From NCBI GenBank assembly GCA_038147295.1, contig JAYQTH010000002.1:741850-805849 (forward strand): 64,000 bases of DNA. Reading direction: 5' to 3'. Under the pieces are notes generated by a model that had not been told where the DNA came from, made no database searches, and was given only the letters and a program-made list of their open reading frames with translations. Position 1 is the stretch's first letter. The number at the start of each line of letters is the position of its first letter. A program made the position numbers and the translations under genes. Below are positions 8,151 to 55,801 of the stretch, one piece after another. Origin of the DNA: Gammaproteobacteria bacterium. GTDB lineage: Bacteria; Pseudomonadota; Gammaproteobacteria; Magnimaribacterales; TMED112.

Positions 8151-9964
8151 GGCAACAGGTAATTAAGAATAAATTCTTGAGTTAAAGCAGGATCATTTAA
8201 TGGCAAGATTAGAGATTTATCCAACTGTTTATTAACTATATTGATGCAGTAAGTTTCAGGAATTGATTCAGTATTTATTGATGCATATATCTTTAGGCAT
8301 TCATCGATCCAGATATAGCTTTTATGTAAATCATCATTACCTGCTCCAGTCCAGTTTAAATCAATAATTTTTCTCGAAAGCGGTACAGAATAGTAGAAAT
8401 CATAAAATATTTTCTCAATTTGATTGTTATCAAAAACAAAAATAGCTGGAAATTGAGAGTATCTATCACCAAAATTTATTCGTCGCTTAACAAGATCAAC
8501 ATTAAACCCACTGTCCAATTGAGGAAAGGACCAAAGATTTAATACCTTCTTTTTGTTAAGTGAGATAATCTTATCAAGATCTTGTGTCTCTAAGCTCTCT
8601 TGGAAGAACAAGTTTCTGCCTAACCCCAATCCTTTTACATCAGTGCCAATTAAACTTAAAACGGTGGGTCCAATATCGAACACATTGCCTTTCATATGAA
8701 GCTTTCCAGGATTAACATTGGCATCAAAAATCATAAATAAGTTTTTTCTGTTGCCTTTATCAAGAACATCTGAGGCAGTATTAACACGTGCATAATGATC
8801 AGAAAGTACAACTAAGGTAGTATTTTTATATATTGGCGATGTAAGAATATTTTCAATAAATCTACCTGCTAATAGGTCGGCGCAATGAACTGCATTAAGT
8901 ATTGGATTGGATCCATCTTTATAAGGTTTATCTTTGCAAGAATCTGAGATGTAGCCATTTGGATGGTGAGTATCGAGAGTGAGTGCAAATACTCCAAAAG
9001 GATTTTTATCTCTATTAAGAGAATTGATTCTCTCTAGCACTATATCAAGTAACTCATCATCGTACACACCCCAGGGTGAGCGATAGTATGGATCATTAAT
9101 TTGTGTTTTTAATTCTGTCCATCCTTCAACGACATCAAAACCGTGCGATTTATAAAACTTACCTTTGCCACCAAAATCTAAATCTGCTCCTCCAATAAAA
9201 TGTAAGTTGTAATTTCTGTTTTTTAAAATATCACCTATACAAAGAGCTGAGGGTAAAAATTCGTCAACACCAGACATTGAGCTACCGCTTGCAACAGGTG
9301 TATACAATGGAATGCCGCATTGTGATGCAGACATACCTGCAATTGTCCAGTTAGTTGCTTTTGGTGATGAGATATTAGTAAAGCTAAGGGATAATTTTTC
9401 AAGACTAGCTAAATTTGGAGTCAATTCAGGAAATAGAGTTTCATTAAAATAAGTACGCTCTAGTTGTTCTAGGTATAAGAAAATAACGTTATTAGTGCTA
9501 TCGGAATAAGAAATATCCTGCTCAAAGAAAAAATTATCATCGGTGCTCGCCTCATTCAAAGTAATAAATTTTTGAAAATCTTTAATAAATGGGGTAGAAA
9601 TAATGGAGCAAAAGATAAGAAATAAAGCTAAATATCCATTAAAAAGGGTCTTATTTTGATTGATCAAAAAATTTTTATATTTTGGTATCAAGTAAACCAT
9701 AGAACCAATTGATGCTGTTGTTAAAACAATTGCTAGATAGTAGTCATCTAAACCACTTCCCTTTATGCCGAAAACAAGATGAAATACTATGGCTTCAAAT
9801 ATTTCAGATCCAAATATATTCTGAAGAACTTGGTACCCAGCTAAAAGAAAGATGCTCAGATAAGAAAAAGCAATAAAACATATCCAGAGCAGCTTACTAT
9901 GTAATTTAAAGCTTGATCTTGCTAGTAACAAGGAAAGTATTAACAAAAATATTGATACGAACAT
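8147..9964 (-). CDS. Membrane-anchored sulfatase-family transferase (phosphoglycerol transferase/LTA-synthase-like)
   Basis: 605 aa. Four to five N-terminal TM helices are followed by an alkaline-phosphatase-superfamily domain (TNWTIAGM, LTLDTHHPNGY, VVLSDHY). Confidence 0.65.
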   Translation of the reverse strand: MFVSIFLLILSLLLARSSFKLHSKLLWICFIAFSYLSIFLLAGYQVLQNIFGSEIFEAIVFHLVFGIKGSGLDDYYLAIVLTTASIGSMVYLIPKYKNFLINQNKTLFNGYLALFLIFCSIISTPFIKDFQKFITLNEASTDDNFFFEQDISYSDSTNNVIFLYLEQLERTYFNETLFPELTPNLASLEKLSLSFTNISSPKATNWTIAGMSASQCGIPLYTPVASGSSMSGVDEFLPSALCIGDILKNRNYNLHFIGGADLDFGGKGKFYKSHGFDVVEGWTELKTQINDPYYRSPWGVYDDELLDIVLERINSLNRDKNPFGVFALTLDTHHPNGYISDSCKDKPYKDGSNPILNAVHCADLLAGRFIENILTSPIYKNTTLVVLSDHYARVNTASDVLDKGNRKNLFMIFDANVNPGKLHMKGNVFDIGPTVLSLIGTDVKGLGLGRNLFFQESLETQDLDKIISLNKKKVLNLWSFPQLDSGFNVDLVKRRINFGDRYSQFPAIFVFDNNQIEKIFYDFYYSVPLSRKIIDLNWTGAGNDDLHKSYIWIDECLKIYASINTESIPETYCINIVNKQLDKSLILPLNDPALTQEFILNYLLP

Positions 9965-31310: not shown

Positions 31311-33461
31311 TTAATCAAAATTAAATAAATATTGTAGCTTCATATAAATTTGAGAGCCTTCTCTAACCCATGTGCCTTCAATATCTTCTTGATTGATAGT
31401 GCCCCCGATATAGAAAATAGTGGCTGAATCTGGCTGCCATTGAAACAAAGCTTGGGTATACGAATCATTATTAAAATCGTTGTATTCATGCACAACTCTT
31501 ATGAACGAATCCTTATTGAATTGATAGGTAGCACGAACTGAGGTGACATAACCAGCAAAATAATCTTCCTTAGTAATTTGATCTGATAGTGAGTTGTATC
31601 GATATTGAAGTCGAACATTAAATTCATCAGTAAATTGATAACGAGTACTTAGATTATAGTTTTCTCTATCGCCAATAGATGGAGTATCAATATTTCGTGC
31701 AATGCCTTCACCAGCAGAATAGCCTAATCTAAAGTAGAAGTTGCCAGATGGTGAATAGGTTGCATTGAAATTGTAATCTGAAAAGTTTTTAAAATTGTAT
31801 TCCTCAAACATGACCTTTACATTGTTTTCATACCCAAATCCAAATTCCATTTGATTGGCCAAATCAAGATTAAAGTTTATGCCAAATTCTTGTTGCAGAA
31901 GTTGATTGTCATAGTTGTGAGATACGCTGGCATTAAATCTAGCATTGGCTGAGCGTATTAGACCTGTACCTCTATACTCATACCTTTGCCACAAATCATC
32001 TTTAATCCAATTATTTTCAGTGGTAAATCCTAAATCCGTGCGAAATTCAGGTGATTTAGTCGCACGTTGGAAGTAAGTAAACCAATTTTCAGTACTTCTA
32101 GAAAAAGCAACCAAGCCACCATAACCGCTGAAAGACTCGCCATCTAAACGGTAAGTATATTTATCTGTTTCAGTTGTAGTTGTTATTAAATCGCTTACAG
32201 GTTCCTCAGTATCACTTTGAGCTAGCTCAAAACGAAATGCATGTTTACTATCAAGAATAAATAAACCTCGAGATACATAATTTCGACCATAACCACCCTC
32301 CTCATATTCCCTATTGGTTGCTAAAAATGAAAGATATTGGCCATTGTCTCTGTTGTAATTGTAACTAAATATATTGGCATGACTTTTTCCCAGCAATGCT
32401 GAATAACTACGCATATTTCCTGGCACAATTAAAGGTGTACTTTGATCCTCTGCATCAAGAAAATAATAGCTGTGCTTATCTCCTCTATTAAATACTTTTA
32501 ATGCGTAATCGGGTGAATTTATTGACCTTGTGTAGACTGCAGATAAGTCTGTTCTAAGAAAATCTGCACCCTCATTAAAGAAAATTCTACGCTCAGGGAA
32601 ACGCAGAGCAGTTGTAGAATTAACATTTATCTGACTTTCATCTGCTTCAACTTGTGAGAAATCTGGATTAATGGTGAATTCAAAAGTATTATCGTTTACC
32701 TCATAAATACCATTCAATGATATTTCTGGATCTACTTTATCGGTGACCATTGCACCTGAATCATCTCTAAAGGACCTGGAATTTGCTGTTAGTGACGGAA
32801 TGAGTCGTTTTTTTGATTTCTGACTAATATTGGTTAATTCATAAAAATATGGCGATTGGCATATAAGACAACCTTTGCCAGCAAGGACTTTATGGCTAAG
32901 GTATCCAGACTCAACACCCTTGTTATAAAGTTTTCTATAAAATGCAACCTTCCAGCGCTTAATGTCTGTATCTTCGTAATTAATGGATGAAAATGGTATT
33001 TTGAGTTCAACGTCATAGCCGTAATCTGTAAATTGTGCTTCAGCTTCAAATTCTACGTTGTATGAGCGTTCGGGCTCTCCAATTGGACCTTCTTTATAAT
33101 CTAAGATGCTGCCATAAGGATTGGCTCCAAAACCAATAAAATACCTCCCATCTCCATAGGTATCCAAACCAAATATTACATGGTCATTGGTGTAGAAAAT
33201 ACCATCACGCGATCTAACCTGAGCTCTGATAAATTCTTTATTGCCATAAACTTTAAAACCAACGTAAAGGTAAAATTCATCGTGCATGACATAGGCATCG
33301 GTTTTGTGTTCTGCTGGTGTGTTATAGCTGGGTCTAGTTTCAACATTAATGTCGTATCTAACGGCATTTTGCCATTCATCTTGGTCAACTGAACCATCAA
33401 ACTGAATATCAGAAAATAATAAGAATGGAATTAATAGAAGCAGCCCTTTGAATTGTTTCAT
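31311..33461 (-). CDS. Putative outer-membrane protein with CBM9/DOMON-like N-terminal domain (DUF5916-like)
   Basis: 716 aa with a signal peptide. The N-terminus has DG.VD..EW..A..... and Y.MHDEFYLYVGFK. The C-terminal two thirds are rich in alternating aromatic/polar beta-strand repeats (YQF, YRY, YEYR), typical of a barrel. The family name is from memory. Confidence 0.6.
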   Translation of the reverse strand: MKQFKGLLLLIPFLLFSDIQFDGSVDQDEWQNAVRYDINVETRPSYNTPAEHKTDAYVMHDEFYLYVGFKVYGNKEFIRAQVRSRDGIFYTNDHVIFGLDTYGDGRYFIGFGANPYGSILDYKEGPIGEPERSYNVEFEAEAQFTDYGYDVELKIPFSSINYEDTDIKRWKVAFYRKLYNKGVESGYLSHKVLAGKGCLICQSPYFYELTNISQKSKKRLIPSLTANSRSFRDDSGAMVTDKVDPEISLNGIYEVNDNTFEFTINPDFSQVEADESQINVNSTTALRFPERRIFFNEGADFLRTDLSAVYTRSINSPDYALKVFNRGDKHSYYFLDAEDQSTPLIVPGNMRSYSALLGKSHANIFSYNYNRDNGQYLSFLATNREYEEGGYGRNYVSRGLFILDSKHAFRFELAQSDTEEPVSDLITTTTETDKYTYRLDGESFSGYGGLVAFSRSTENWFTYFQRATKSPEFRTDLGFTTENNWIKDDLWQRYEYRGTGLIRSANARFNASVSHNYDNQLLQQEFGINFNLDLANQMEFGFGYENNVKVMFEEYNFKNFSDYNFNATYSPSGNFYFRLGYSAGEGIARNIDTPSIGDRENYNLSTRYQFTDEFNVRLQYRYNSLSDQITKEDYFAGYVTSVRATYQFNKDSFIRVVHEYNDFNNDSYTQALFQWQPDSATIFYIGGTINQEDIEGTWVREGSQIYMKLQYLFNFD

Positions 33462-37301: not shown

Positions 37302-39365
37302 CTAAAAATAATAGCTAAATACGACCCTAGCATTGAATGGTTCACCTACGCTAACTTGATGCATGGCGTGGGCATGTGGAAAATAAAGTTCATCGAACAG
37401 GTTCTCAAGATGTAGACGCAGTGTAAGCCGTTCGCTGTAGCTGTATGAACCAGATATATCTAGACGACTATACTGAGGTAAAGTTAAAGCCTCATTGTCA
37501 TCCATAATTAATGATTCGCCTTGCGATAAATAACCAAAACCAAGATTAAGTTTATTTGTTAGCTGGTATTGGGCATTAGCAGAAAAAGTAAATTCAGGGA
37601 TTTCTCGAGGTGTGCCTCCTGATTGAGTTTTACCATTCAATGAGGTGTAACTGGCCATAACATATGAAAAGTTTTGTCCAATATCCCCTTTAACTTCGAG
37701 TTCATAACCATCCACACTTAGTCCCCTAATGTTGTATGTTTCACCAGATATATTATCCCGTGCTGCTCTAATTTGTTGACTGTTAAAATAAGCAGCTGTT
37801 AGATTTAATTGATTATTAAGCAGTATTTTTATCCCAATTTCTTTGCTTTCAAAAACATCTGGATCCAATCGAGCTGCACTGGAATTTAATTTTTTATATT
37901 GTTCTCCTGATCTTGGTAAAAAGCTTTCACTGTAACTTAAGTACATTGATACATTTTGTTGTGGTTTAAATATTAATCCTCCTCTGGGTGATAAAGTGTT
38001 GTCTTTTTTTGTCTCTAAGGTGTTGCTGATGTGATCCTCAACACTAATATCAAATTGATCCAATCGAGCTCCTATAACCAACTTCCAGCGTTCACTTAGA
38101 TCTATCTGATCTTGCAGATAAAATGAAGAGATAGTTATTTCAGAATGAGTTTTACTATTAGGAGTTAAGTAACTTAAAGAGGTATCTATACCACTACTAT
38201 TTATAGCAAAGTCGATAGGTGTTGAAATAGAAAATAAATCAGTATCGTTCTGAGTTGCTGACCAATATGCATCGAAACGTGAATTATTATTGGTGGTTTG
38301 AATGTATTCAATACCGAACAACAAGGTATGAATAACCTTACCATAATTGATTTCATTTATAAGGTTGCTGGAAAAAATAAAGTTATCTCGTTTGGTTGGG
38401 TCTAAATATCCGTCCATCATTATCAGGCTACCATCGTAATCCGATGTATAAATGTTCTGATAAACTTTCTCAAAATTATTTGCTGTAAGGTTGAAGTTAG
38501 CCTTAAATGTATCTGACATTTGATAGCTTGCCTGTAATCTATAAATATCTGCTTCTAGGGTGTGATAATTAAAATCAGGATTGCCAAATACAGTGTTTCT
38601 TAAGGATGTATCTGGTCTACCATAGAGTGTAGGGATCCCTCTATCAATAAATCTTTCATGATTGATGTATTCGTATGAAAGGTTAAGAGTTAGCTCAGAA
38701 CCGAGAATTAGTGTTAATGAAGGGTTTATACCCATCCTATTACCAAAGAAATGATCTCGATGATTCTCTAGTTGATCAGTATGTAGGTTGATACGTAATC
38801 CAGAGTTTATGCCTAATATATGATTGCTATCTATTGCTAAATCTGTCCCTCCAAAAGTATTGAGCCCTAAATTTAAATGAGTAAAGTTTTCTGAAGTTAC
38901 AGCTTTTTTTGTAACACGATTTACAATGCCACCAGTGCCACCTCTGCCAAAAAGCAAGGCGTTTGGACCACGCAGTATCTCTAGTTGATCAACATTGTAT
39001 AAGGAGCGAATATATTGAACATCATCGCGTATCCCATCTTGATAGAAATCGGCAGTAGATCTGATACCCCTTATGACAATAGCATCTCTATGCCCTTCCC
39101 CTTGTGAACTAGTGACACCTGGAACAAATCTAATAATATCTTCAATATTGCTAAAACCATTATTTAAAATTTCTTCATCGGTAATGATAGAAACAGTTTG
39201 AGGTACATTGAGTATCGGAACTGGGGTTTTTAAAGCACTTACTTGGTCTTGATAAAGAACTTTGCCCTTTACTACAAGCTCTTCTAGATCAGAATTATTT
39301 TCACTACAAACAAAGTTAATAAATACTAAAAGAAAAAAAACTTTAAATTTATTGTTTAATATCAT
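37302..39365 (-). CDS. TonB-dependent outer-membrane receptor (siderophore/iron-complex type)
   Basis: 687 aa. A signal peptide is followed by a TonB-box-like LEELVV, a plug domain (VPGVT...G....I.IRG, LEILRGPNALLFG.GGTGG) and a C-terminal barrel ending in F. Two Fur boxes lie upstream. Confidence 0.9.
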   Translation of the reverse strand: MILNNKFKVFFLLVFINFVCSENNSDLEELVVKGKVLYQDQVSALKTPVPILNVPQTVSIITDEEILNNGFSNIEDIIRFVPGVTSSQGEGHRDAIVIRGIRSTADFYQDGIRDDVQYIRSLYNVDQLEILRGPNALLFGRGGTGGIVNRVTKKAVTSENFTHLNLGLNTFGGTDLAIDSNHILGINSGLRINLHTDQLENHRDHFFGNRMGINPSLTLILGSELTLNLSYEYINHERFIDRGIPTLYGRPDTSLRNTVFGNPDFNYHTLEADIYRLQASYQMSDTFKANFNLTANNFEKVYQNIYTSDYDGSLIMMDGYLDPTKRDNFIFSSNLINEINYGKVIHTLLFGIEYIQTTNNNSRFDAYWSATQNDTDLFSISTPIDFAINSSGIDTSLSYLTPNSKTHSEITISSFYLQDQIDLSERWKLVIGARLDQFDISVEDHISNTLETKKDNTLSPRGGLIFKPQQNVSMYLSYSESFLPRSGEQYKKLNSSAARLDPDVFESKEIGIKILLNNQLNLTAAYFNSQQIRAARDNISGETYNIRGLSVDGYELEVKGDIGQNFSYVMASYTSLNGKTQSGGTPREIPEFTFSANAQYQLTNKLNLGFGYLSQGESLIMDDNEALTLPQYSRLDISGSYSYSERLTLRLHLENLFDELYFPHAHAMHQVSVGEPFNARVVFSYYF

Positions 39366-39378
39366 CTGATTTTTAAAT

Positions 39379-39397
39379 GAGAATGATTCTCGTTTAG
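39379..39397. promoter_or_regulatory. Fur box 1 (proximal to the receptor gene)
   Basis: GAGAATGATTCTCGTTTAG contains the perfect palindrome GAGAAT-G-ATTCTC. The core AATGATTCTC resembles the AATGATAATCATT core of the Fur consensus. It lies over the expected transcription start of the receptor promoter. Confidence 0.65.
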
Positions 39398-39406
39398 TAT
39401 ATTATT

Positions 39407-39425
39407 GAGAATGATTCTCATTTGC
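39407..39425. promoter_or_regulatory. Fur box 2 embedded in a promoter spacer
   Basis: GAGAATGATTCTCATTTGC matches the Fur consensus GATAATGATAATCATTATC at 14 of 19 positions by hand alignment. On the minus strand it fills the 17-nt spacer between TTGCAA (39422-39427) and TAATAT (39399-39404). Confidence 0.7.
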
Positions 39426-39467
39426 AATAACAGAAGCAAAAAAACAATATTTAATTTAAAATAAAGT

Positions 39468-40625
39468 ATGGCCAGATTAAAAAAATATATAACAAACAGA
39501 GGTTTCTTACCCGAAGCAACTCCTTTAAGAGCTGTGCAAAATAAAACTGCTAGTACAGATATAATTAACAACGTAGCACTCGAACTTCCAAAACTTCTTC
39601 TTACCAATCAAATACGTCCAACAATAAACAAAATTAAAAATTTAGATCTACATCTAAATGATCACTCTCTAGAGGAGCAAGAATTACTCTTTGCACAACT
39701 CTCATTTATAGCCCATGCATATGTTTGGGGCGACTTAAAGCCTGTCCAAAATTTACCACACAACATTAGTGCACCTTGGGTTAAGCTTTCAGAAAAATTT
39801 AAACGCCCTCCTATCCTGAGTTATGCCTCCTATTGCTTACACAATTGGTACAAAATTAATGAAACTAAAGATGTTTCTTTAGATAATGTGGCCCTAATCA
39901 ATAATTTTTTAGGTGGCATAGATGAGGATTGGTTTGTAACGATCCATGTATGCATAGAAGATGCTGCGAGTCCAGCAATATCAAGTATAGCTAAAATTGT
40001 AGATGATGAGCTATGGAATGATGAGTCGTTATTAGCAGAAGAGTTGCAAACCGTAAAAGAATCTATGGCAAAAGTAAATGAAATCTTTAGATTAATGCCA
40101 GAGAAATGCGATCCATATATCTACTACCATAGAGTAAGACCATATATATTTGGATGGAAAAACAATCCAGATTTACCCGATGGTCTAATTTATGATGGTT
40201 TTTTTCAAAATAAACCGCAATTATTCAGAGGTGAAACAGGTGCACAGAGCTCCATTATTCCATCTCTTGATGCATTGTTTAATGTTCATCATGAGAAAGA
40301 CGAATTACGAGATTATCTTGATGAAATGAAACTTTACATGCCAGATAATCATAGAAATTTCATTCGAATAGTAGAAGAAGAATCTAAAGTTAAAGATGCT
40401 GCACTTTCTAGTAGCAAAATTAATGCTTTAGTTAATGATTGTCTTGATGAGATGACAAACTTTCGATCTCAGCATTTGCAATATGCTGCAGATTACATTC
40501 ATCAACAAAATGTTAAAAGCACACTATTTGGTACAGGAGGTTCTACAGTTAGAGGCACAGGCGGAACACCCTTTATGAAATATCTTAAAAAACATAGAGA
40601 CGAAACCAACACATCAAAAAGATAA
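39468..40625 (+). CDS. Indoleamine 2,3-dioxygenase-family heme protein
   Basis: 385 aa, collinear with the IDO1 C-terminal signature blocks as I recall them. The pairs are GETGAQSS (IDO GGSAGQSS), MKLYMPDNHRNFI (MRRYMPPAHRNFL), FRSQHLQYAADYI (LRSYHLQIVTKYI, proximal His) and RGTGGTPFMKYLKKHR (KGTGGTDLMNFLKTVR). Confidence 0.85.
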   Translation: MARLKKYITNRGFLPEATPLRAVQNKTASTDIINNVALELPKLLLTNQIRPTINKIKNLDLHLNDHSLEEQELLFAQLSFIAHAYVWGDLKPVQNLPHNISAPWVKLSEKFKRPPILSYASYCLHNWYKINETKDVSLDNVALINNFLGGIDEDWFVTIHVCIEDAASPAISSIAKIVDDELWNDESLLAEELQTVKESMAKVNEIFRLMPEKCDPYIYYHRVRPYIFGWKNNPDLPDGLIYDGFFQNKPQLFRGETGAQSSIIPSLDALFNVHHEKDELRDYLDEMKLYMPDNHRNFIRIVEEESKVKDAALSSSKINALVNDCLDEMTNFRSQHLQYAADYIHQQNVKSTLFGTGGSTVRGTGGTPFMKYLKKHRDETNTSKR

Positions 40626-40669: not shown

Positions 40670-41788
40670 ATGTTTAAAAAACTTTTTACTGCTTTCACAC
40701 TCGTTTTACTAACTGCTTGTGGCGGTGGCGGTGGCGGCTCTGAAGCTCCTGCTCCAGCTCCAACTCCAGCACCAACACCAGCACCAACGCCAGCACCAAC
40801 TCCTGAGCCTACTCCTGAGCCAACGCCGGAACCAACACCAGCACCAACACCAGAACCAGTAACCAATGTTACTTACTCTGATGATTTTGAAGCTTATTCA
40901 TCTGATGATGCTAACTTAGCACCATGGGATGCTTATGTTAATCAGTTTAATGCTGATGGTTCATACATTGGTGGATATGCTGCAGCTCCAGCTCCAATAG
41001 CAGGCGATATTAGTGCACTAGTTGAAGAGGAAGTTAACAAATACGTCAATATTTATAGCAACTATCAAGACGGCACTCACAATGGAGGTATTGTTGAAGC
41101 AAATTTCTTTAGAGAGCTCGGAGCAGACGAAGGTTTAATTACAGCTTCAATGGTTGGAACATATCGTATGACTTTTGACGCCAAACACCCTGAATCCAAT
41201 AATTGTGGCTCAACTAACCCTGACAATGGAGCAAGTGGTGCTGAATGTAGTGCATTTATAAAAGTTTTAAATTCAAGTGATTTTAATGAATTACTTTTTG
41301 TAGAGACTGATACAACAGAATTAACCACAGAGTGGCAAACTTTGACTTTAGATTTTGAAATTACAGAAGCAATGGTTGGTCATATTTATCAATCCGGATT
41401 TATGAATACAGCAGGCAATTACGCTCCAACTGGCGTACATTACGACAATGTCAAAGTTGAGACTTATTCAGAAACTGTAGAGGTCACCGTAACCAATCAA
41501 GGCAACACCTACTATATGAATGGTGAAATGCATGGCAGCATTACAGTGCGTCGTGGTCAAACCGTTGTATTTGACACCTCAGCATTTGGTAATAGTCATC
41601 CATTTCGACTTAGCAAAACTAAAGATGGAACATTTGGTGGTGGAACTGCTTACACTGAAGGAGTTAGTGGTGACCAAAATACTCTGACATGGGTTGTTCC
41701 GACAGATTTAGACGTTGATACAATGTACTATTTCTGCACTTTACATGCCGGAATGGCTGGAGATGGAGTAATCAATATAATTGATTAA
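40670..41788 (+). CDS. Lipoprotein with Pro/Thr/Ala/Glu linker, central beta-sandwich-like domain and C-terminal cupredoxin-like (type-1 Cu) domain
   Basis: 372 aa. The lipobox is LLTAC, followed by G6 and a (PAPT/PEPT)n linker. The central region ends in HYDNVKVE, which is CBM-like. The C-terminal ~100 aa carry candidate Cu ligands His310 (NSHPF) and Cys356-x2-His359-x2-Met362 ([12 protein letters not shown]). That spacing is the same as in amicyanin-type blue copper sites. Confidence 0.7.
40745..40858 (+). repeat. In-frame imperfect 12-bp tandem repeat encoding the (P-A/E-P-T)n linker
   Basis: The repeat reads gctccagctccaactccagcaccaacaccagcaccaacgccagcaccaactcctgagcctactcctgagccaacgccggaaccaacaccagcaccaacaccagaacca, encoding [38 protein letters not shown]. 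Confidence 0.9.
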
Positions 41789-42171
41789 TTAACGGTTATT
41801 AGTATCTCTTCAGAATAAATTGGGTTGCTATGTGGAATATGTACATAGTTTCCAAGTAGCAACCTCAATCTGTATTCACCTTTAGGTAGCTCCAATACAG
41901 CTTCAGTCTGTCCCTTGCCAAAATGAATATGATTGCTATCAGCAGGGATTGGTTTAGTTAAATCGATTGGAAAATCAACGTTGATCAACAAGTGATGATG
42001 GCCGGTGTTATCAATATCGTAACCTGCAGGAGCAACGCCAAAATCCTTTAATCCAAAAACAACTTTTACTGGCCCTGAAATATTTGCTTTATTTTGCGGT
42101 TCAATAAAATAAAGTTCGGGTTCAGATAGTAGGATCTGAGATACGAGATAAATTAAAGCAAGCCTTTTAAT
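41785..42171 (-). CDS. DUF4399-like secreted protein; no canonical start codon (candidate ATT start)
   Basis: The frame is open from a TAA at 42190-42192 down to the stop at 41785. My translation is (I)KRLALIYLVSQILLSEPELYFIEPQNKANISGPVKVVFGLKDFGVAPAGYDIDNTGHHHLLINVDFPIDL...ILITVN, and the GHHHLL motif is typical of DUF4399. The only ATG/GTG/TTG in frame is the internal TTG used by the ORF track (68 aa), which would delete the signal peptide. The ATT at 42169-42171 is preceded by GGAGAAGGA. Confidence 0.6.
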   Translation of the reverse strand: MKRLALIYLVSQILLSEPELYFIEPQNKANISGPVKVVFGLKDFGVAPAGYDIDNTGHHHLLINVDFPIDLTKPIPADSNHIHFGKGQTEAVLELPKGEYRLRLLLGNYVHIPHSNPIYSEEILITVN

Positions 42172-42911
42172 ATTCCTTCTCCAATAAGAAATTTATTTAT
42201 ACCCTCATTTTGGTAAATTTCCAAATCCTTAGAATTAGAAAACCCTGATTCAGCGATTATAGAGAAATTTTGAAAGTCATTACTATATTTTTTATATAGC
42301 CTAAGAGCATGCATATTATCTGTCTGCAGGGTTTTAAGATTTCTGTTATTAATACCTATATGGTCTAGTTCCTGGTTTAGCACCTTACCCAATTCACGTT
42401 CTTCATGAAATTCAAGTAAAACGTCTAGATCAAGCGACTTAGCAAGCTTTATAAATGCTGAAATTTGAGCTTCCGATAAGTATTCAGCAATAAGCAGAAT
42501 ACAATCAGCACCTATGTATTTTGATTCGTATATTTGCCACTCATCAAAAATAAAATCTTTTCTTAGCACTTTTAAGTTGGTATTTGAGGCAATCTTTGTG
42601 AGGTCTGAGTTTACACCATAAAAGTACCCAGATTCAGTTAAGACAGAAATATTTTCATAGCCTTTCTCTTCGTAGGATTGTGCTATTGAAAGAGGGTCAT
42701 ATTGCTCCTTAATGATACCTGCTGATGGAGAGCCTTTTTTAGTTTCAGCAATAATTTTAAAATTGCTTCTATTGCCATCTAAGGTGCTAAAAAAATTTCC
42801 AGAGCTACGCTTTTGGTCAAAATTTTCAATAAAAAAATCTATGGATTGGATTTTCTTAGCTTCAGCTACTTGGGCTCTTTTTAACTGAAATATGGTTTCA
42901 AGCTGATTCAT
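42153..42911 (-). CDS. trpC: Indole-3-glycerol-phosphate synthase
   Basis: 252 aa with IIAETKKGSPSAG, LRKDFI and INNRNL. Confidence 0.9.
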   Translation of the reverse strand: MNQLETIFQLKRAQVAEAKKIQSIDFFIENFDQKRSSGNFFSTLDGNRSNFKIIAETKKGSPSAGIIKEQYDPLSIAQSYEEKGYENISVLTESGYFYGVNSDLTKIASNTNLKVLRKDFIFDEWQIYESKYIGADCILLIAEYLSEAQISAFIKLAKSLDLDVLLEFHEERELGKVLNQELDHIGINNRNLKTLQTDNMHALRLYKKYSNDFQNFSIIAESGFSNSKDLEIYQNEGINKFLIGEGILKGLL

Positions 42912-43912
42912 TCTTGAGTTGCTTTGGCGTACACATTCAAGTTAAGAAGGACTTTTCCGGATATTAATTGTTTTTTTGCTATTTCAAAACATTCGATTAG
43001 ATCATCGCATAATCCTAATAAATACAAACAGAAACCTGCATTTAGAGCTACCATATCCAGTCCTGGTCCTCTTTTACCATTTAGCACCTCTACCCCAAAC
43101 AGGTAAGCTTCTTCAAGTGATTGTACCTGGATATCAGATAGAGAGCAGTCTACAAAGCCATAATCTTTAGGATTGAATTGCCATTCTAAGATTTCATTAT
43201 TTCTAATTTCGGTTATTGAAGTTGGTTCATGTATTACTATTTCATCAATGCCTGAACTAGAGGTTGCGACTATACCTCTTTGTATTCCATTATTTAACAA
43301 AGCATTTGCCATATCTCTGTTAATAGAAGAATCGGATGTTCCCAGCAATTGGAATTGTGGTTTGGCAGGGTTAACAAGTGGCCCCAAGATATTAAATATT
43401 GTTCTTACACCTAACTCTTTACGAACTTTAGCAACATTTTTTAATTTTGGATGTTGATTTGGAGCAAATAAAAAGCAAATGCCTAATCTTTGATATAGGT
43501 TGATAAGCTGACTGTTATCAACATTTAAATTTACACCGGCCCTTTCTAGGAAATCAGCGCTTCCAGATTTGCTTGTTATTGATCTATTGCCATGTTTGAT
43601 TACTTTCCCGCCACATGAAGCAACAGTAAATGCAGAAAGGGTCGAACAGTTAAAAATTGACTGACCAGAACCACCTGTACCACACGTATCGATACAATCG
43701 TTATGGTCTAAGTCAATTAGATTAGAGTGTTTAAGGATCTCATTTGATAATACGGAAAGATGATTATAGTTAATGCCAACTTCATTTAAACTTAATAAAA
43801 TTTCTTTTTTCTCTTCATCAGATGAGTCTTCACTAAGCAAATGACTGAATAAAAACTCTAGTTCCGCTTTTCGCGATGTTGAGTTGTTTAGTATTGCTAA
43901 TAGATTATCCAT
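42908..43912 (-). CDS. trpD: Anthranilate phosphoribosyltransferase
   Basis: 334 aa with DTCGTGGSG, KHGNRS.TSKSGSAD and NILGPL.NP. Confidence 0.9.
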   Translation of the reverse strand: MDNLLAILNNSTSRKAELEFLFSHLLSEDSSDEEKKEILLSLNEVGINYNHLSVLSNEILKHSNLIDLDHNDCIDTCGTGGSGQSIFNCSTLSAFTVASCGGKVIKHGNRSITSKSGSADFLERAGVNLNVDNSQLINLYQRLGICFLFAPNQHPKLKNVAKVRKELGVRTIFNILGPLVNPAKPQFQLLGTSDSSINRDMANALLNNGIQRGIVATSSSGIDEIVIHEPTSITEIRNNEILEWQFNPKDYGFVDCSLSDIQVQSLEEAYLFGVEVLNGKRGPGLDMVALNAGFCLYLLGLCDDLIECFEIAKKQLISGKVLLNLNVYAKATQE

Positions 43913-44486
43913 ATAAAGTAAAAAAGTTATCTAATAACTTATTGCCTTGTTCGGTAAATATTGATTCAGGATGAAACTGAATGCCCACAACCGGATACGT
44001 TTTGTGTTTAACTGCCATTATTGTTTTTTTATTATCATCCTCACACCAGGCCAAAATCTCAAGATCATCTGATACAGATTTTTCAGAGATTACCAAGCTG
44101 TGATATCTCATGGCAATGTATGGTTCTTTTATATTTTGAAAAATTGAAGATTTAGTGTGGCTGAGATTTGACGTCTTGCCATGCATTATTTTATCAGCAA
44201 TGACAATTTTCCCACCGAACACCTCACCTATACATTGATGTCCTAAACAAATACCTAAAATAGGTTTCTTATCATAAAAATAATTTATTAACTCTAAGCT
44301 TATACCAGCATTTTTAGGGTTTGATGGGCCAGGACCAATAACAAAAGCATCGTAATCCAGTTGAGATATCTCATCAATGGAGATCTTATCGTTACGTATA
44401 ACATTTACTTCGTGATCAAGCATTAAAAGCTGATGTTCAACGTTAAAAGTAAATGAATCGTAATTATCAATTAGACAGATTTTCAT
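43905..44486 (-). CDS. trpG: Anthranilate synthase component II (glutamine amidotransferase)
   Basis: 193 aa with GPGPS.P, GICLGHQ, and QFHPES. Confidence 0.9.
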   Translation of the reverse strand: MKICLIDNYDSFTFNVEHQLLMLDHEVNVIRNDKISIDEISQLDYDAFVIGPGPSNPKNAGISLELINYFYDKKPILGICLGHQCIGEVFGGKIVIADKIMHGKTSNLSHTKSSIFQNIKEPYIAMRYHSLVISEKSVSDDLEILAWCEDDNKKTIMAVKHKTYPVVGIQFHPESIFTEQGNKLLDNFFTLYG

Positions 44487-45925
44487 TTATATCTTAACGC
44501 CTCATAAAATACCTTAGCTTTTGATTCTGTTTCTTCCCACTCTGAATCGGGATCTGAATCGTAAACAATTCCTGCTCCAACACCAACTTTTACATGATCA
44601 TCAAAATGCATACCGGTACGAATAACAATGGCTGTATCCAGTGAACCATTAAATCCTAAATATCCTACTGCACCGCCATAAACACCTCTTGGTCGTTTTT
44701 CAATTTCGCTTAGAATCTCCATAGCCCTTATTTTTGGAGCTCCACTTAAAGTACCAGCTGGCAAGGCTGCTTTCATGCAATCTATAGTTGAAACGTCTGT
44801 TTTTGATCGTCCAATCACATTCGATGTCATATGCATAACGTGAGAGTATTTCTCAACAACCATCATTTCATCTACTTGAACGGTTCCTTGCTCACATACT
44901 TTTGAAAGGTCATTCCTTGCTAAATCAACAAGCATCATATGTTCAGATTTTTCTTTTTCATCCTCAATAAGATCGATTTTATTTTTTAGGTCCTCAGATT
45001 TATTAAGACCTCGCCTACGTGTGCCTGCAATAGGTCTTATTGTTACTTTGTCATCATTTTTTTGAACCAGTATTTCTGGTGAGGAACCAATAATTCGAAA
45101 TTTGTCAAAGTTTAAGAAAAACATATAAGGCGATGGATTAATTAATCGAAGAGCACGGTAAAGCGTATAGGGATCAAATTCACCATCAAACGTAATCTCC
45201 TTTGATAATACTGCTTGCATTATTTCGCCTTGGTTAATTAGTTTTTTTAGGTCTTTAACTTGATTTATAAATGTTTTTTTATCGACATTGGAAGATGATT
45301 TTAAGGTTTTATTATCTATTGAAATGCTTTGATTAACAGAAGGTTGAAGAGAAAATACCGCTTGTTTAATTTCGGAAATTCTTTTCTTTGCTTTCTCCCA
45401 GCCTATTTCTGACTTATCGGTAGTATTAACTACGATATAAAATGTACCTTTGAAGTTATCAAAAATAATTAATTCATTGCATTCAATTAGAGATATTAGA
45501 GGTATGTCTTGATCTGGAAAAGTAACTTTATGCTCTATAAATTGGAATGATTCATAACTAAAGTAACCAACCAAACCTCCAAGAAATTCAGGGAGATGAT
45601 TTATTTTTGGTGATGAAAAAGATTGACTAATTTTATCTATATGATCATAAGCATTAATAATTCTTTGTTTTGTAGTTTGTGAATCATTAACTATTTCTAA
45701 CTCATCTTTAAAGTAATTGTATTTTTTCTGAGATGGAAGGCTCATTATTGAGTAACGGCCTTTTACTTCATGAGATTTTGCTGATTCAAATAAAAAAGTA
45801 TTTTCTTGATTGTAAAAGTTTGAATAAACGTAAAGCGGACTTACCAAATCTGCTGTAAATTCTTCATATACTGGTATGTGTGAATAAGATGAATTCTTGT
45901 ATCTTAAAAAATCTTCTTTATTCAT
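44483..45925 (-). CDS. trpE: Anthranilate synthase component I
   Basis: 480 aa with LFES, NPSPYMFF, IAGT..RG, DL.RND, and GAVGY....G..D.AI.IRT. Confidence 0.9.
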   Translation of the reverse strand: MNKEDFLRYKNSSYSHIPVYEEFTADLVSPLYVYSNFYNQENTFLFESAKSHEVKGRYSIMSLPSQKKYNYFKDELEIVNDSQTTKQRIINAYDHIDKISQSFSSPKINHLPEFLGGLVGYFSYESFQFIEHKVTFPDQDIPLISLIECNELIIFDNFKGTFYIVVNTTDKSEIGWEKAKKRISEIKQAVFSLQPSVNQSISIDNKTLKSSSNVDKKTFINQVKDLKKLINQGEIMQAVLSKEITFDGEFDPYTLYRALRLINPSPYMFFLNFDKFRIIGSSPEILVQKNDDKVTIRPIAGTRRRGLNKSEDLKNKIDLIEDEKEKSEHMMLVDLARNDLSKVCEQGTVQVDEMMVVEKYSHVMHMTSNVIGRSKTDVSTIDCMKAALPAGTLSGAPKIRAMEILSEIEKRPRGVYGGAVGYLGFNGSLDTAIVIRTGMHFDDHVKVGVGAGIVYDSDPDSEWEETESKAKVFYEALRYK

Positions 45926-46697
45926 TTTTAATTGCTTTAAGGATGGGTGTCAGGAATTTGCGTAATTTTGCTTGATGATTATCTTGGTTTAATAATTCAA
46001 CAATGGCACTGCCAATCACAAATCCATCAGCGTGAGATTTAAACTCATTTATTTGTGATGGATCTTTTAATCCAAAGCCTAAGACAACAGGCAAACTAGT
46101 TTTATCTCTAATGGCTTGAATATTGTCTAAAACCTCATTTTTATTGATATTTGATGATCCAGTAACTCCTCTTTGAGAGATGAAATATATAAACGCAGGA
46201 TTGTTTGATATGCATGATTCAATTTCATTTAATGGAGTAGTTGGGGCGATAAGTTGAATAAATTCAATTTCATTATCATGAAACGTTTTATAGATATCTT
46301 TTTCTACGTAAGGTAAATCTACAATTAAAAAGCCATCAACAAGTGCTTTTTTTGCTCGCTCTATAAATGCTTCTAGGCTTGGAGAAATAAATGAATTGGT
46401 ATATCCCATTAAAACAATTGGTATATCAGAATCTAATTTAAAATTTTTAATTACTTCCAATGCACTGACTAAATTAAAATTATCATTAAGAACTTGATGA
46501 TGTGCGGATTCAATAATCTTACCTTCAGCAATTGGATCAGAAAATGGGATGCCAACTTCAATTAAATCTGCCCCTAAATCTTTTAAGGTATACAAAGTTT
46601 CAGTAAAAACATCTTGGTTTGGGAAATTAGCGACCACATAAGGTATAAATGCCTTTTTTTGATTGGCCGCTAAATTTAAGAACTTATTTTTTATCAT
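45918..46697 (-). CDS. trpA: Tryptophan synthase alpha chain
   Basis: 259 aa with [17 protein letters not shown] and GF.VGSAIV. Confidence 0.9.
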
Positions 46698-47850
46698 TAT
46701 TCATTACCGAATAGAGATCTTTATCTCCTCTACCAGACATGTTTACAACAACATCATTGGATGAATCTAGGCTTCCTAATTTTTCTAGATAAGCAAGAGC
46801 ATGGGCTGTTTCTAGTGCAGGTATTATTCCTTCGAGCCTTGAGGTTTTATAAAAAGCAGCTAGAGCTTCTTCATCGTATATTTTTTTATATTCAGCCCTT
46901 TTGATTTCATCTAAATAAGCATGTTCAGGGCCTACCCCAGGATAATCAAGGCCTGCAGAAATACTGCTTGTTTCAAGAATATTTCCATCCTCGGATTGTA
47001 GTATTTTTGTTTTAGCTCCATGTAGCACACCTATGCTGCCGTCTGATATCGATGCACTACCTATATCAGAACTATTTTTTCCACCTGCTTCAATTCCTAT
47101 TAATTGAACATTTATATCGTCTATAAAAGGATAAAAGACACCCATTGCATTAGAACCACCACCAACACAAGCAATAATCATATCCGGCAATTTTCCTATT
47201 TGATTTTTTGCTTGATGTTTTAATTCCTGACCAGCAATTGCATTAAAATCTCTCACTATAGTTGGGTAAGGGTGTGGGCCAGTTACACTACCAATAATGT
47301 AGTGTGTATTGTCTACATTTGTAACCCAGTCTCTGATTGATTCATTTAAGGCATCTTTAAGAGTTGCTGTTCCACTGGTAACAGGTATTACTTCTGCGCC
47401 TAGAGTTTTAATTTTAAAAACATTAAGTTCCTGTCGAACGATATCGGTTTGCCCCATATATATAGTGCAATCTAAATCAAGTTTGGCACAGATTGTAGCA
47501 GTTGCGACACCATGTTGGCCTGCACCCGTTTCAGCAATAATTCTTTTTTTCCCAAGCCTTTTGGCTAACAAAGCCTGTCCGACAGTATTATTGATTTTAT
47601 GTGCACCAGTATGATTAAGATCCTCTCGCTTGAACCATATATTAGGACCGCCAATATCAGTAGTGTATTTTTCTGCAAAATATAATGGAGATGGTCGTCC
47701 AACATAATTTTTATATAGATCTTCTAGTTCAGTTCTGAAAGAAATATCATCTTTAGTTGAATTATAAAGCTCATCAAGCTCTCTTAATGCATAAGACAGA
47801 GTTTCAGGTATAAACAACCCGCCAAAACTTCCAAAATATCCTTTATTCAT
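46684..47850 (-). CDS. trpB: Tryptophan synthase beta chain
   Basis: 388 aa with [30 protein letters not shown] and GGGSNA.G. Confidence 0.95.
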
Positions 47851-48433
47851 ATCTAAACTGTTCCAACAACTTTATCTTTTTTAGATCTTTTATACCTGGA
47901 GATATTTCAATTTTTGAATTTAAATCAACCCCAAAAATTTGAAGTGTTGATAAATAATCTATATCTTCAACTCCAACTCCTCCAGCTATCATAAAATTTG
48001 AAAGGTTTACATTATCGAGGATAGACCAATCAAATTTATTCCCACTGCCTCCCAGCGTGCTAGCCATATTATCAAGTAAAAAAATAGTATTTCTAATAGG
48101 TTCTATCTGCAACAAATCATTTTGTTGCAAATTTGTTGCAGAAAGTGGTTCAAAACACATACTTTTTTTAGGTTTTTGATAGTTGCCATATAGTTGGAAA
48201 TTTGATTGCACATTAGTATCCAAGAACTTTGCAATATCATCGACTGTTGGATTTTCTAACAGGCATGTAAATTTATCTTGTAAATTGTATTTTCTTGACA
48301 TATCTAAGGCCCAATCAACAGAAACTTTTCGCGGGCTCGATTTAATAAAATTAAAGCCAATATAATCAATATTTACACTTAAAAGCGCTTCAATATCATT
48401 TTCTCGGGTAACCCCGCACACTTTAATTTTCAT
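47843..48433 (-). CDS. trpF: Phosphoribosylanthranilate isomerase
   Basis: I placed the start at MKIKVCGVT (48433). This leaves a 7-nt gap (48434-48440) after the cupin stop, whereas the track ORF start at 48496 overlaps the cupin gene. The C-terminus carries IAGG...N. Confidence 0.8.
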
Positions 48434-48440
48434 ATTATTT

Positions 48441-48869
48441 TTATTGCGGGTCTTGGTTTGATTCAGGGGAACGGCCTCGCCAACCCTGTTTATCAAAAAT
48501 TCTTAGATACACTAATTGGTCGTGGTCACTTTCATTTACAACTTTAATGTAATCACCTTCCTCAGCGAGAATGACATCCCCGGCTGATAAAGAGTATTCA
48601 TCTTTATGCATAATGCCGTGTGAGGGATCAGAACCGTGTCCATCTTGAGTATTGGCATATTCAACAACTTCCATTATTCCTCTGCCGGATATGACAACAA
48701 AAATTACCTCACTCTCCAATAGTCGATGTCCAAAAGTTGACATATTTGGTTCGATAACAGTTTTACTAGCTATAAGTTTTGTCAGAAGGTCGTTGGTCCA
48801 AACGGTATAACTATCCTCCTTTCTTTCAGGAACTCCACCTACTCTAAAGTTGACGTATTTTTTTGCCAT
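48441..48869 (-). CDS. Cupin-domain protein
   Basis: 142 aa with G.H......E.IFVV.G.G and LSAGDVI...EGDY..V.N. It lies immediately upstream of trpF on the same strand. Confidence 0.65.
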   Translation of the reverse strand: MAKKYVNFRVGGVPERKEDSYTVWTNDLLTKLIASKTVIEPNMSTFGHRLLESEVIFVVISGRGIMEVVEYANTQDGHGSDPSHGIMHKDEYSLSAGDVILAEEGDYIKVVNESDHDQLVYLRIFDKQGWRGRSPESNQDPQ

Positions 48870-51424: not shown

Positions 51425-51650
51425 CTTACCTCGCGGTAACAGACTAAGAAGGGAACTGCAGAACCCAAATTAGAAAGAAACCACAGGCAGAGAACAGAAA
51501 GGTGAAAGTTCAAGTAAGCTAGCCGGCAAAAAAGCAAACTTGACCACCAAGGATAAAAGAGATCTTATCCAAGGATGCAAAAGATAATCTCACTTTTGAC
51601 ACCTACTGATCTCGAACTTAAAGAAAACTGAGCTTGCTCAGTTTTTTTTT
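51425..51650 (+). ncRNA. Candidate structured small RNA or pheA 5-prime leader (unclassified)
   Basis: A ~225-nt segment has about 41% G+C by hand count over 51421-51620. The flank at 51241-51340 has about 15%. The segment is strongly purine-rich and has no ORF above 18 codons. Local hairpins include GGTG..TCAAGT/ACTTGA.CACC at 51501-51549, GGATAA/TTATCC at 51551-51570 and CAAAAG/CTTTTG at 51578-51598. It ends in a strong intrinsic terminator. The 5-prime end is an estimate. Confidence 0.4.
51624..51650 (+). terminator. Intrinsic terminator
   Basis: The sequence AAAACTGAG-CTTG-CTCAGTTTTTTTTT is a stem with a tetraloop, A-tract/U-tract extension and a 9-T run. It lies 27 nt upstream of the pheA GTG. 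Confidence 0.7.
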
Positions 51651-54895: not shown

Positions 54896-55765
54896 TCAGC
54901 TGTAAAATCTACGCCATAGATTGATGCCAAAAATTAATGAAATTAACCACAACAGTACTTCTATATAGTTTGGATTTGAGTTGTAGCCAAAAAAACCCTT
55001 AGCAAACTCACCCGCATAACCTGAGTCATGCAAGGGGTGATAATATAGGCCCTTACTTCTATCGTACCTATAGAGGATATCGTTGTCTGGTTTCTCAGAT
55101 GTTGGCTGCAATATATCCCATGGTCGTGCAATTTGATTTTTTTCAATATAACCAGATTTTTCTAAATACTCTTCAGCTTCATGTGTGCCGTAAGCAACCA
55201 TACCGGATGCCAAAAGTACCAATAATAGTGTAGTGCCTTTAAAAAACGGCCTTAAATTAATTTTCTTTCCCAATACTACTACTAAATAACCAATATAAAG
55301 CGCCAATACTGCACCCAAAATAAAACCAATAAATGAAAAACCATCGCCTCGGTCCTGGGCCAGTAACATAACTACTGTTTCAAACCCTTCCCTTAAAATT
55401 GAAAAGAACACTACCCAAAACACACCCCAAGATGACATCTTCAAAGCTTGTTCTGTTTTAGATTCAAGGTCCTTACGATCCGAAACATGTTTTGATAGCC
55501 AAAATACAACATACCAAATTAAACCTGCAGCAGCATACATAAACAGTGCTTCAAATAATTTTTCATAGCGGGTATCGCCAGCTACTGATTTAAGGTAAAC
55601 CACTATAAATGCTACAAAAATACTAGCTAGCACTGATGCACCAACGCCAAGCCATAGTTTTGAAATTGCTTCAGTTAGATTAGAACGAGATAAAAAGCTA
55701 TAAATGATACCAACTATTAGTGACGCTTCTAAGCATTCTCGAAAGACAATTATAAACTCGTTCAT
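54896..55765 (-). CDS. FTR1/EfeU-family high-affinity iron permease
   Basis: Two REXXE-type motifs are present (FRECLEASL and LREGFETV) along with seven TM helices. I placed the start at the ATG (MNEFIIVF) at 55765. The track used the TTG at 55774. Confidence 0.85.
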   Translation of the reverse strand: MNEFIIVFRECLEASLIVGIIYSFLSRSNLTEAISKLWLGVGASVLASIFVAFIVVYLKSVAGDTRYEKLFEALFMYAAAGLIWYVVFWLSKHVSDRKDLESKTEQALKMSSWGVFWVVFFSILREGFETVVMLLAQDRGDGFSFIGFILGAVLALYIGYLVVVLGKKINLRPFFKGTTLLLVLLASGMVAYGTHEAEEYLEKSGYIEKNQIARPWDILQPTSEKPDNDILYRYDRSKGLYYHPLHDSGYAGEFAKGFFGYNSNPNYIEVLLWLISLIFGINLWRRFYS

Positions 55766-55782
55766 TGTTAACAAATACTAAT

Positions 55783-55801
55783 GAGAATGATTCTCATTTG
55801 C
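55783..55801. promoter_or_regulatory. Fur box within the FTR1 promoter
   Basis: GAGAATGATTCTCATTTGC is identical to Fur box 2 at 39407-39425. On the minus strand the layout is TTGCAA (55798-55803), a 17-nt spacer that is the box, TAGTAT (55775-55780), then 9 nt to the ATG. Confidence 0.7.

Follow-up and report, generated by a model that had tools for sequence, protein, structure and literature searches.

The DNA considered here (hereafter the window) is the whole 64,000-nt stretch from position 741,850 to position 805,849 of contig JAYQTH010000002.1, in the gammaproteobacterial assembly GCA_038147295.1. It comes from SAR86, a group of uncultured heterotrophs with streamlined genomes that is among the most abundant in surface seawater. 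In the window, a gene for a heme dioxygenase of the indoleamine 2,3-dioxygenase (IDO) family stands back to back with one for a TonB-dependent outer-membrane receptor, and the 102-bp spacer between them (39366-39467) contains two palindromes of the 7-1-7 kind associated with the iron regulator Fur. A first-pass annotation, made from the letters of the sequence, had taken the dioxygenase to be under iron control, and had suggested as one explanation that it might begin the synthesis of a tryptophan-derived iron chelator resembling quinolobactin, and as another that the regulation might be confined to the receptor side. Does the iron control belong, then, to the dioxygenase or to its neighbour? 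The features bearing most directly on this question are as follows.

39468..40625, plus strand: gene for an IDO-family heme dioxygenase of the distal-histidine bacterial subtype, 385 aa (Pfam, match to human IDO1, catalytic columns).
37302..39365, minus strand: gene for a TonB-dependent siderophore-type outer-membrane receptor, divergent from IDO (Plug and TonB_dep_Rec domains).
39378..39392, no strand assigned: Fur-type box A, TGAGAATGATTCTCg, 12 nt from the receptor ATG, at about +1 to +15 of the predicted receptor transcript.
39406..39420, no strand assigned: Fur-type box B, TGAGAATGATTCTCA, filling the putative receptor promoter spacer and ending 47 nt before the IDO ATG.
39399..39427, minus strand: putative sigma-70 promoter of the receptor gene (-35 TTGCAA at 39427-39422, a 17-nt spacer, -10 TAATAT at 39404-39399).
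54896..55774, minus strand: gene for an FTR1-family iron permease (Pfam PF03239, E=3e-39).
55782..55796, no strand assigned: third Fur-type box, 7 nt upstream of the FTR1 start, with a TTGCAA extension.

Judged from its sequence, the dioxygenase open reading frame (ORF) is a genuine and intact member of the IDO family. Its product matches the Pfam IDO family (PF01231) at E=8.1e-88 and 295.4 bits (cut-off 26), residues 9-382 lying on profile positions 9-411 out of 412, so that the signature blocks (SQHLQ and GTGGT) picked out in the first-pass annotation are borne out by a match over the full length of the family. No other Pfam family is matched at E<=0.01, neither the tryptophan 2,3-dioxygenase (TDO) nor the PrnB family being recognized, and NCBIfam supplies no model for the protein. 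Its only matches in the Protein Data Bank (PDB) are to human IDO1 and IDO2, at E values of about 1e-50, and the alignment with human IDO1 (30.6% identity over 340 aligned positions, residues 36-382) takes in both domains. In this alignment H336 (in the segment FRSQHLQ) falls on the proximal heme-ligand His346; R224, R333, F156 and Y119 correspond to Arg231, Arg343, Phe163 and Tyr126, respectively; and G363-T-G-G-T coincides with the GTGGT loop that holds Thr379. The pocket differs from that of IDO1 in having His for Ser167, Tyr/Tyr for Phe226/Phe227, Tyr for Cys129 and GETGAQSS for GGSAGQSS, and the top PDB match is the engineered S167H mutant of IDO1 (6CXU). The distal histidine is H160 (codon 39945-39947), a TDO-like feature invariant in SAR86, Actinomarina and Fimbriimonadales.

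These features are shared widely. Among 75 aligned IDO orthologues (44-90% identity), F163, the His at 167, R231, R343, H346 and the GTGGT loop (IDO1 numbering) are invariant in all 75, whatever the genomic context. In a family-wide survey of the 109 nearest full-length representatives of 50%-identity clusters, the proximal histidine is present in 108, and the position of Ser167 is occupied by His in 77, Thr in 23 and Ser in 2. The distal-histidine IDO is the usual prokaryotic form, making up a large 'His-type' prokaryotic clade, and is not peculiar to the window gene. In complexes of IDO1 with tryptophan, the amino-acid part of L-Trp makes contact with Arg231 and with the GTGGT/Thr379 loop. 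Because Arg231 and this loop are invariant, and because TDO uses a distal histidine, 2,3-dioxygenation of L-Trp is the most likely reaction; the window protein, in other words, most likely binds heme b and converts L-Trp (or a very close alpha-amino-acid indole), with O2, to N-formylkynurenine. A search of the literature found no biochemical characterization of a His-type prokaryotic IDO, the characterized bacterial IDOs not having been checked for a distal histidine.

The distribution of the gene was followed by a scan of one genome per species, which yielded 469 IDO relatives; 80 IDO-anchored loci (L001-L080) were compared with the window, the related genomes being covered over about 21 kb and the genome of the window itself by its 64 kb. 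The best 55 relatives nearly all carry the label SAR86 or unclassified marine Gammaproteobacteria and have the same low GC content, and the next come from Fimbriimonadales, Actinomarina and others. IDO is thereby placed in at least 55 SAR86 species, about 12 of which have the receptor adjoining it. The closest locus is that of SAR86 MED-G83, with 90% identity in IDO and the same gene order over 17 kb, and the exact IDO sequence of the window is found also on contigs of 2.8 and 5.2 kb with the same neighbours. The family is abundant in marine metagenomes; library-wide it comprises 2777 clusters at the 50%-identity level (E<=1e-3). In SAR86 the gene is a conserved, single-copy 'orphan' whose neighbours vary by lineage: in one class of loci they are DUF1330, malate synthase G and a flavin-dependent (FAD) monooxygenase, in another pyruvate kinase, pyruvate dehydrogenase or a sodium:solute (SSF) transporter, and in other phyla assorted genes. 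A streamlined genome that keeps a heme dioxygenase in essentially every lineage must find some important role for it. We found no SAR86 or Actinomarina member of the family discussed in the literature and no paper combining SAR86 with indoleamine (matches for SAR86 with kynurenine proved irrelevant), nor anything linking IDO with Fur.

Some closer associations of IDO occur in particular lineages. One sub-lineage (L011, L015, L018, L025, at about 8830-9960) has a PatB-like C-S lyase gene 7 nt upstream of IDO and a short-chain dehydrogenase/reductase gene downstream; in L040 and L042 a CinA/cytidylyltransferase-like gene lies 24 nt upstream; and in Actinomarina (L063-L079) IDO has an alanine dehydrogenase gene overlapping its stop and, as divergent neighbour, a photolyase-related (DPRP) gene. 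We considered the lyase, the CinA-like gene and the alanine dehydrogenase as pointers to a pathway and set them aside: they do not belong to the known kynurenine enzymes, and their association with IDO is not a general one. None of these partners, the reductase and the photolyase-related gene included, is known to be connected with tryptophan dioxygenation. A 716-aa protein, which is encoded in the window at 31311-33461 on the minus strand and has only a weak N-terminal match to family 9 of the carbohydrate-binding modules (CBM), has relatives (34-35% identity) encoded just downstream of IDO in L040 and L042.

If N-formylkynurenine is the product, what might be done with it? NAD synthesis, the recycling of anthranilate into the adjacent trp pathway, or some other fate may be envisaged in SAR86. 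The 59 larger ORFs of the window, scanned against Pfam, include no kynureninase, formamidase, kynurenine 3-monooxygenase (KMO) or 3-hydroxyanthranilate dioxygenase (HAAO), as the first-pass annotation had remarked for the first two, and no non-ribosomal peptide synthetase (NRPS) or quinolobactin-type genes. Beside IDO in the 80 loci there is likewise no gene for a formamidase, kynureninase, KMO, HAAO, aminotransferase, AMP-ligase, NRPS or exporter, and tblastn with human KYNU and HAAO as queries (their sequences confirmed by PDB matches of 1070 and 656 bits, respectively) gave no match in the 1.98 Mb of loci covered. The FAD monooxygenase found near IDO in many SAR86 genomes was considered as a possible KMO and rejected: its best NCBIfam models are of the 3-hydroxybenzoate and urate hydroxylase types, with no KMO match. 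The locus is neither a kynurenine cluster nor a quinolobactin-like one, the receptor being the only one of the latter's partners present. Nothing supports a tryptophan-derived siderophore pathway, and the proposal of a quinolobactin-like chelator is left without support by the lack of partner genes in the window and beside IDO in the 80 loci.

The missing kynurenine genes could also be accounted for if the protein were not a tryptophan 2,3-dioxygenase at all, and either used another indole or aromatic substrate or simply bound heme and O2 in the manner of IDO-like myoglobins. In keeping with this, the pocket changes S167H, F226Y/F227Y, C129Y and G262E/S263T/A264G are fixed across the clade, IDO is an orphan in 80 of 80 genomic contexts, and ancestral IDOs have been proposed to be broad indole oxidizers in a paper that also notes IDO-like myoglobins (PMC4191572). 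We nevertheless think such a role unlikely: Arg231 and the GTGGT/Thr379 loop are invariant, a distal histidine is what TDO uses with L-Trp, and the failure of pathway genes to cluster is common in streamlined genomes.

Turning to the spacer, boxes A and B each agree with the Fur 7-1-7 consensus, TGATAATnATTATCA, at 12 of its 14 specified positions, the window motif being that consensus with one symmetric T-to-G change; the orthologous site in SAR86 genome L006 is the canonical TGATAATGATTATCA. By this resemblance the window palindromes are Fur-type operators. The exact 13-mer core occurs three times in the 64 kb, the third time at 55783, and with up to two mismatches there are seven matches against 2.4 expected, a number reached in none of 100 shuffles. 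No riboswitch or leader was recognized by Rfam in the IDO/receptor spacer. The receptor passes TIGR01783, the model for TonB-dependent siderophore receptors, at 256 bits (cut-off 223.5), and the spacer of its putative promoter consists of box B with 1 nt on each side. A 25-nt module made up of the box and TTGCAA (...TCATTTGCAATAA) is identical at the receptor (box B) and at FTR1, where the upstream sequence TTGCAA-17-TAGTAT matches the receptor layout; that layout is kept in L001-L003 and L013. FTR1 would thus be the second member of a Fur regulon in the window, and the arrangement, which looks like one for repression, points toward the iron-uptake genes (the receptor and FTR1). Homologues of FTR1 are frequent neighbours of receptor homologues in metagenomes. 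No more than 9 nt separate the putative -10 of FTR1 from its ATG, so that its mRNA may be leaderless, and the box arrangement is seen also in L016. For the receptor family and FTR1, a usable SAR86 module of Fur box plus promoter can now be defined.

A Fur-box-like operator does, then, lie in the region upstream of the window IDO. Does it accompany IDO or the receptor when the two are apart? For the receptor, 80 metagenome homologues (49-99% identity) were drawn from a scan with the receptor alignment, 67 of them having enough upstream DNA; the comparison as a whole took in about 160 related loci. The receptor is divergent from IDO in 12 species genomes (L001-L010, L012, L016) and on the short contig L013, and each of these receptor-linked loci has at least one spacer box with at least 13 of 14 matches. 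Where IDO is without the receptor, no box (at a threshold of at least 12 of 14 matches) was found upstream of it in about 34 SAR86 and 22 non-SAR86 loci, despite upstream spacers of 340-440 nt. A box with at most one mismatch and at most 260 nt from the start is present upstream of 63 of the 67 receptor homologues, and 52 of these 63 have no adjoining IDO (11 have one). All the 14/14 boxes in L001-L080 are upstream of a receptor or of FTR1. Across lineages, in short, the operator is conserved with the receptor and FTR1 and not with IDO. Since the box is absent from IDO genes that lack the receptor and present at receptors that lack IDO, it is the receptor's (and FTR1's) operator, and the pairing of IDO with the receptor is a lineage-specific inherited synteny, confined to one SAR86 sub-lineage. 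Of the first-pass claim of a shared Fur-box region, the two palindromes in the spacer stand; iron control of IDO in its own right is not supported, and the suggestion that regulation is restricted to the receptor side fits best.

How might IDO itself be transcribed? Hexamers resembling a -10 element (TAAAAT, TATAAT, TAGAAT, TACAAT) are found 4-10 nt before its ATG in all 14 syntenic sequences (39440-39467 in the window), which suggests an mRNA with a very short leader or none, the boxes consequently lying upstream of the IDO -35. Similar hexamers are found near the IDO ATG in many of the loci where it is linked to the small RNA IMES-1 (see below). Box B ends 47 nt and box A 75 nt before the IDO ATG, a geometry that would suit no effect on IDO at all, a weak repression of it, or its activation by holo-Fur (Fur loaded with iron).

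Several points weigh against a purely receptor-directed role for the boxes. The two genes are a mere 102 bp apart and box B ends 47 nt short of the IDO start codon, so that Fur could still affect IDO. In L001-L016 the boxes keep to two narrow ranges of distance from the IDO ATG, 47-57 and 71-80 nt, though the spacer sequences have otherwise diverged, and this tight spacing hints at an architectural constraint that an accidental neighbour would not need. L004, L006 and L007 have a third box in addition, at a distance of about 55 nt from the start codon of IDO and 100 nt from that of the receptor. Finally, not all the receptors of 49-57% identity need be orthologues; some may be paralogues. Between box and receptor ATG the interval ranges from 12 to 127 nt, a spread that may partly reflect uncertain calls of the receptor start.

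The conserved spacing, the third box on the IDO side of the spacer, the sharing of a divergent spacer of 71-213 bp in 12 genomes, and the palindromic nature of TTGCAA, which might act as a -35 for either gene, might all be taken to mean that IDO has been recruited into the Fur regulon and is switched on along with the receptor when iron is scarce, for instance in order to supply a tryptophan-derived (kynurenine or quinoline) iron ligand that the receptor re-imports. We regard this as decidedly unlikely, as neither the window nor the surroundings of IDO in the 80 loci contain a gene for any further enzyme or exporter of such a pathway, the catalytic residues are identical with and without the receptor, the box is missing at every receptor-less IDO and present at 52 receptors without IDO, and to induce a heme enzyme during iron scarcity would be costly. 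That last paradox would be removed, and the conserved spacing explained, if the operator worked with opposite signs in the two directions, iron-loaded Fur repressing the receptor and activating (or relieving the silencing of) IDO, so that the heme enzyme would be made when iron is plentiful. The centre of the nearest box, at about -55 to -85 relative to IDO and upstream of its -35 in the 14 syntenic sequences, would suit such a role, and holo-Fur reportedly activates genes of Neisseria and Helicobacter from just such positions. The basis of this idea is purely geometric, however; the DNA is AT-rich (34% GC) and full of -10-like hexamers, and box-free promoters express IDO in all other lineages. 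A dual-sign operator therefore seems to us very improbable indeed.

Overall, the best explanation, and in our view probably the right one, is that IDO is a housekeeping distal-histidine tryptophan dioxygenase, that the boxes are the Fur operators of the receptor, and that their juxtaposition is inherited synteny. Box B would fill the space between the -35 and the -10, and box A would cover the start of receptor transcription; when iron is present, Fur would occupy both and the receptor would be off, and when iron is absent the receptor would be made. The same promoter module would drive FTR1, 16 kb away. IDO would probably use its own promoter close to the ATG, with at most a secondary effect from Fur bound 47-75 nt upstream, and may here be passively co-regulated. 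To recognize iron control that is borrowed in this way is to avoid the false annotation of a new siderophore pathway.

Other genes flanking the IDO/receptor pair determine a PEMT-like methyltransferase, GlpK, a CBM-like lipoprotein, a DUF4399 protein and the enzymes of tryptophan biosynthesis. Those lying on the far side of IDO from the receptor, together with the IMES-1 gene, are listed here.

40670..41788, plus strand: lipoprotein gene, encoding a Pro/Thr linker and a CBM4/16/22-like jelly-roll domain (AlphaFold2 model, Foldseek).
41785..42153, minus strand: DUF4399 gene, at the 3' end of the trp transcription unit (Pfam PF14347).
42153..48496, minus strand: complete trpF-trpB-trpA-trpE-trpG-trpD-trpC operon (profile matches).
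51434..51626, plus strand: IMES-1 small RNA gene (Rfam RF02034, 136 bits, gathering score 81).

The lipoprotein gene starts 44 nt downstream of IDO with no terminator predicted between them, and is probably co-transcribed with it. The protein has no Pfam match; its AlphaFold2 model has a mean confidence (pLDDT) of 64, and the CBM-like Foldseek matches have E values of about 1e-6. The C-terminal part (41471-41785, about 105 aa), which occurs only in the closest homologues, carries a motif resembling a type-1 copper site (H-P-F ... C-x2-H-x2-M). A cupredoxin there would have made a link to ferrous oxidation of the FTR1 type, but the idea is not supported: phmmer against the PDB gave nothing, and the model of the C-terminus (pLDDT 63) had no Foldseek match better than E=0.19.

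The trp operon, which the first-pass annotation had rightly described as complete and 1.5 kb away, is convergent with the IDO/lipoprotein unit, its 3' end being 1.53 kb from the IDO stop. It shares no regulatory DNA with IDO, other genes take its place in three syntenic genomes, and it is an unrelated convergent neighbour. The DUF4399 frame is open from the trpC stop, with no ATG, GTG or TTG until about codon 55, and its orthologues have 115-133 aa; its translation may depend on an unusual start or on coupling to trpC.

IMES-1 is an extremely abundant RNA of marine metatranscriptomes. In the window its gene lies about 50 nt upstream of pheA, itself a gene of aromatic amino acids, and the same position is found in three further genomes of the receptor-linked lineage (L008, L009 and L016); the IMES-1 promoter there has a perfect TTGACA -35. 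In most other SAR86 lineages IMES-1 occupies the place next to IDO that the receptor promoter takes in the window. In SAR86A and two other genomes it is divergent from IDO and immediately upstream (about 190-200 bits with Rfam), and a survey with nhmmer found this divergent arrangement in the genomes of 26 SAR86 species. The two genes are then about 130 nt apart, IMES-1 typically lying 86-141 nt before IDO begins, with at least eight different genes on the far side; the pairs are among L021-L055 (in L027, for instance, IMES-1 is at 9672-9864 on the minus strand). Two copies are present in L021, L022, L036 and L038. An abundant non-coding RNA had been noticed in metatranscriptomes, in a 'carbon assimilation' region of SAR86A and SAR86B, the link with IDO not being noted (Dupont et al., 2012; PMC3358033). 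It could be imagined that IDO does not stand alone but forms with IMES-1 a conserved regulatory unit, the two being functionally coupled, for example in the turnover of aromatic amino acids, and that the window's lineage has exchanged this coupling for a dual-sign Fur operator by which, when iron is replete, the receptor is repressed and the heme enzyme activated; we consider this improbable. Why IDO stays so persistently linked to IMES-1 is nonetheless, together with the orphan status of so universally kept a gene, what remains of interest in the locus.

It is useful, finally, to set the window beside systems that are better known. Homologues of IDO are known in bacteria, where they have been reported in place of TDO and taken to start tryptophan catabolism (Yuasa, Ushigoe & Ball, 2011, Gene 485:22, as cited in PMC4191572). 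The window IDO adds to these a representative from an ecologically important clade. With human IDO1 (PDB 2D0T, 5WMU) and IDO2 it shares its Pfam family and the residues His346, Arg231, Arg343, Phe163, Tyr126 and GTGGT, and it differs from IDO1 in being prokaryotic, with a shorter N-terminus, no immune role and a distal histidine for Ser167. TDO (KynA) has that distal histidine, reportedly placed next to the indole N1, and presumably the same reaction, but belongs to a different sequence family (PF03301), of which the window protein shows no match, and forms tetramers. The quinolobactin (qbs) locus of Pseudomonas fluorescens ATCC 17400 is said to be iron-repressed and to have its tryptophan dioxygenase gene adjoining that for a TonB receptor, much as in the window; the qbs operon, however, also includes genes for a kynurenine formamidase, KMO, an aminotransferase, an AMP ligase and sulfur-transfer proteins, none of which is found here or in the related loci. 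The nearest likeness in regulatory layout is with the fepA-fes and fepB-entC regions of E. coli, which are Fur-controlled and bidirectional, with short divergent spacers in which the boxes overlap promoter elements. Both genes of each E. coli pair serve iron uptake, and the boxes go with both, whereas here the box follows one partner only across genomes. The Fur-controlled promoters of the receptor and FTR1 are ordinary ones.

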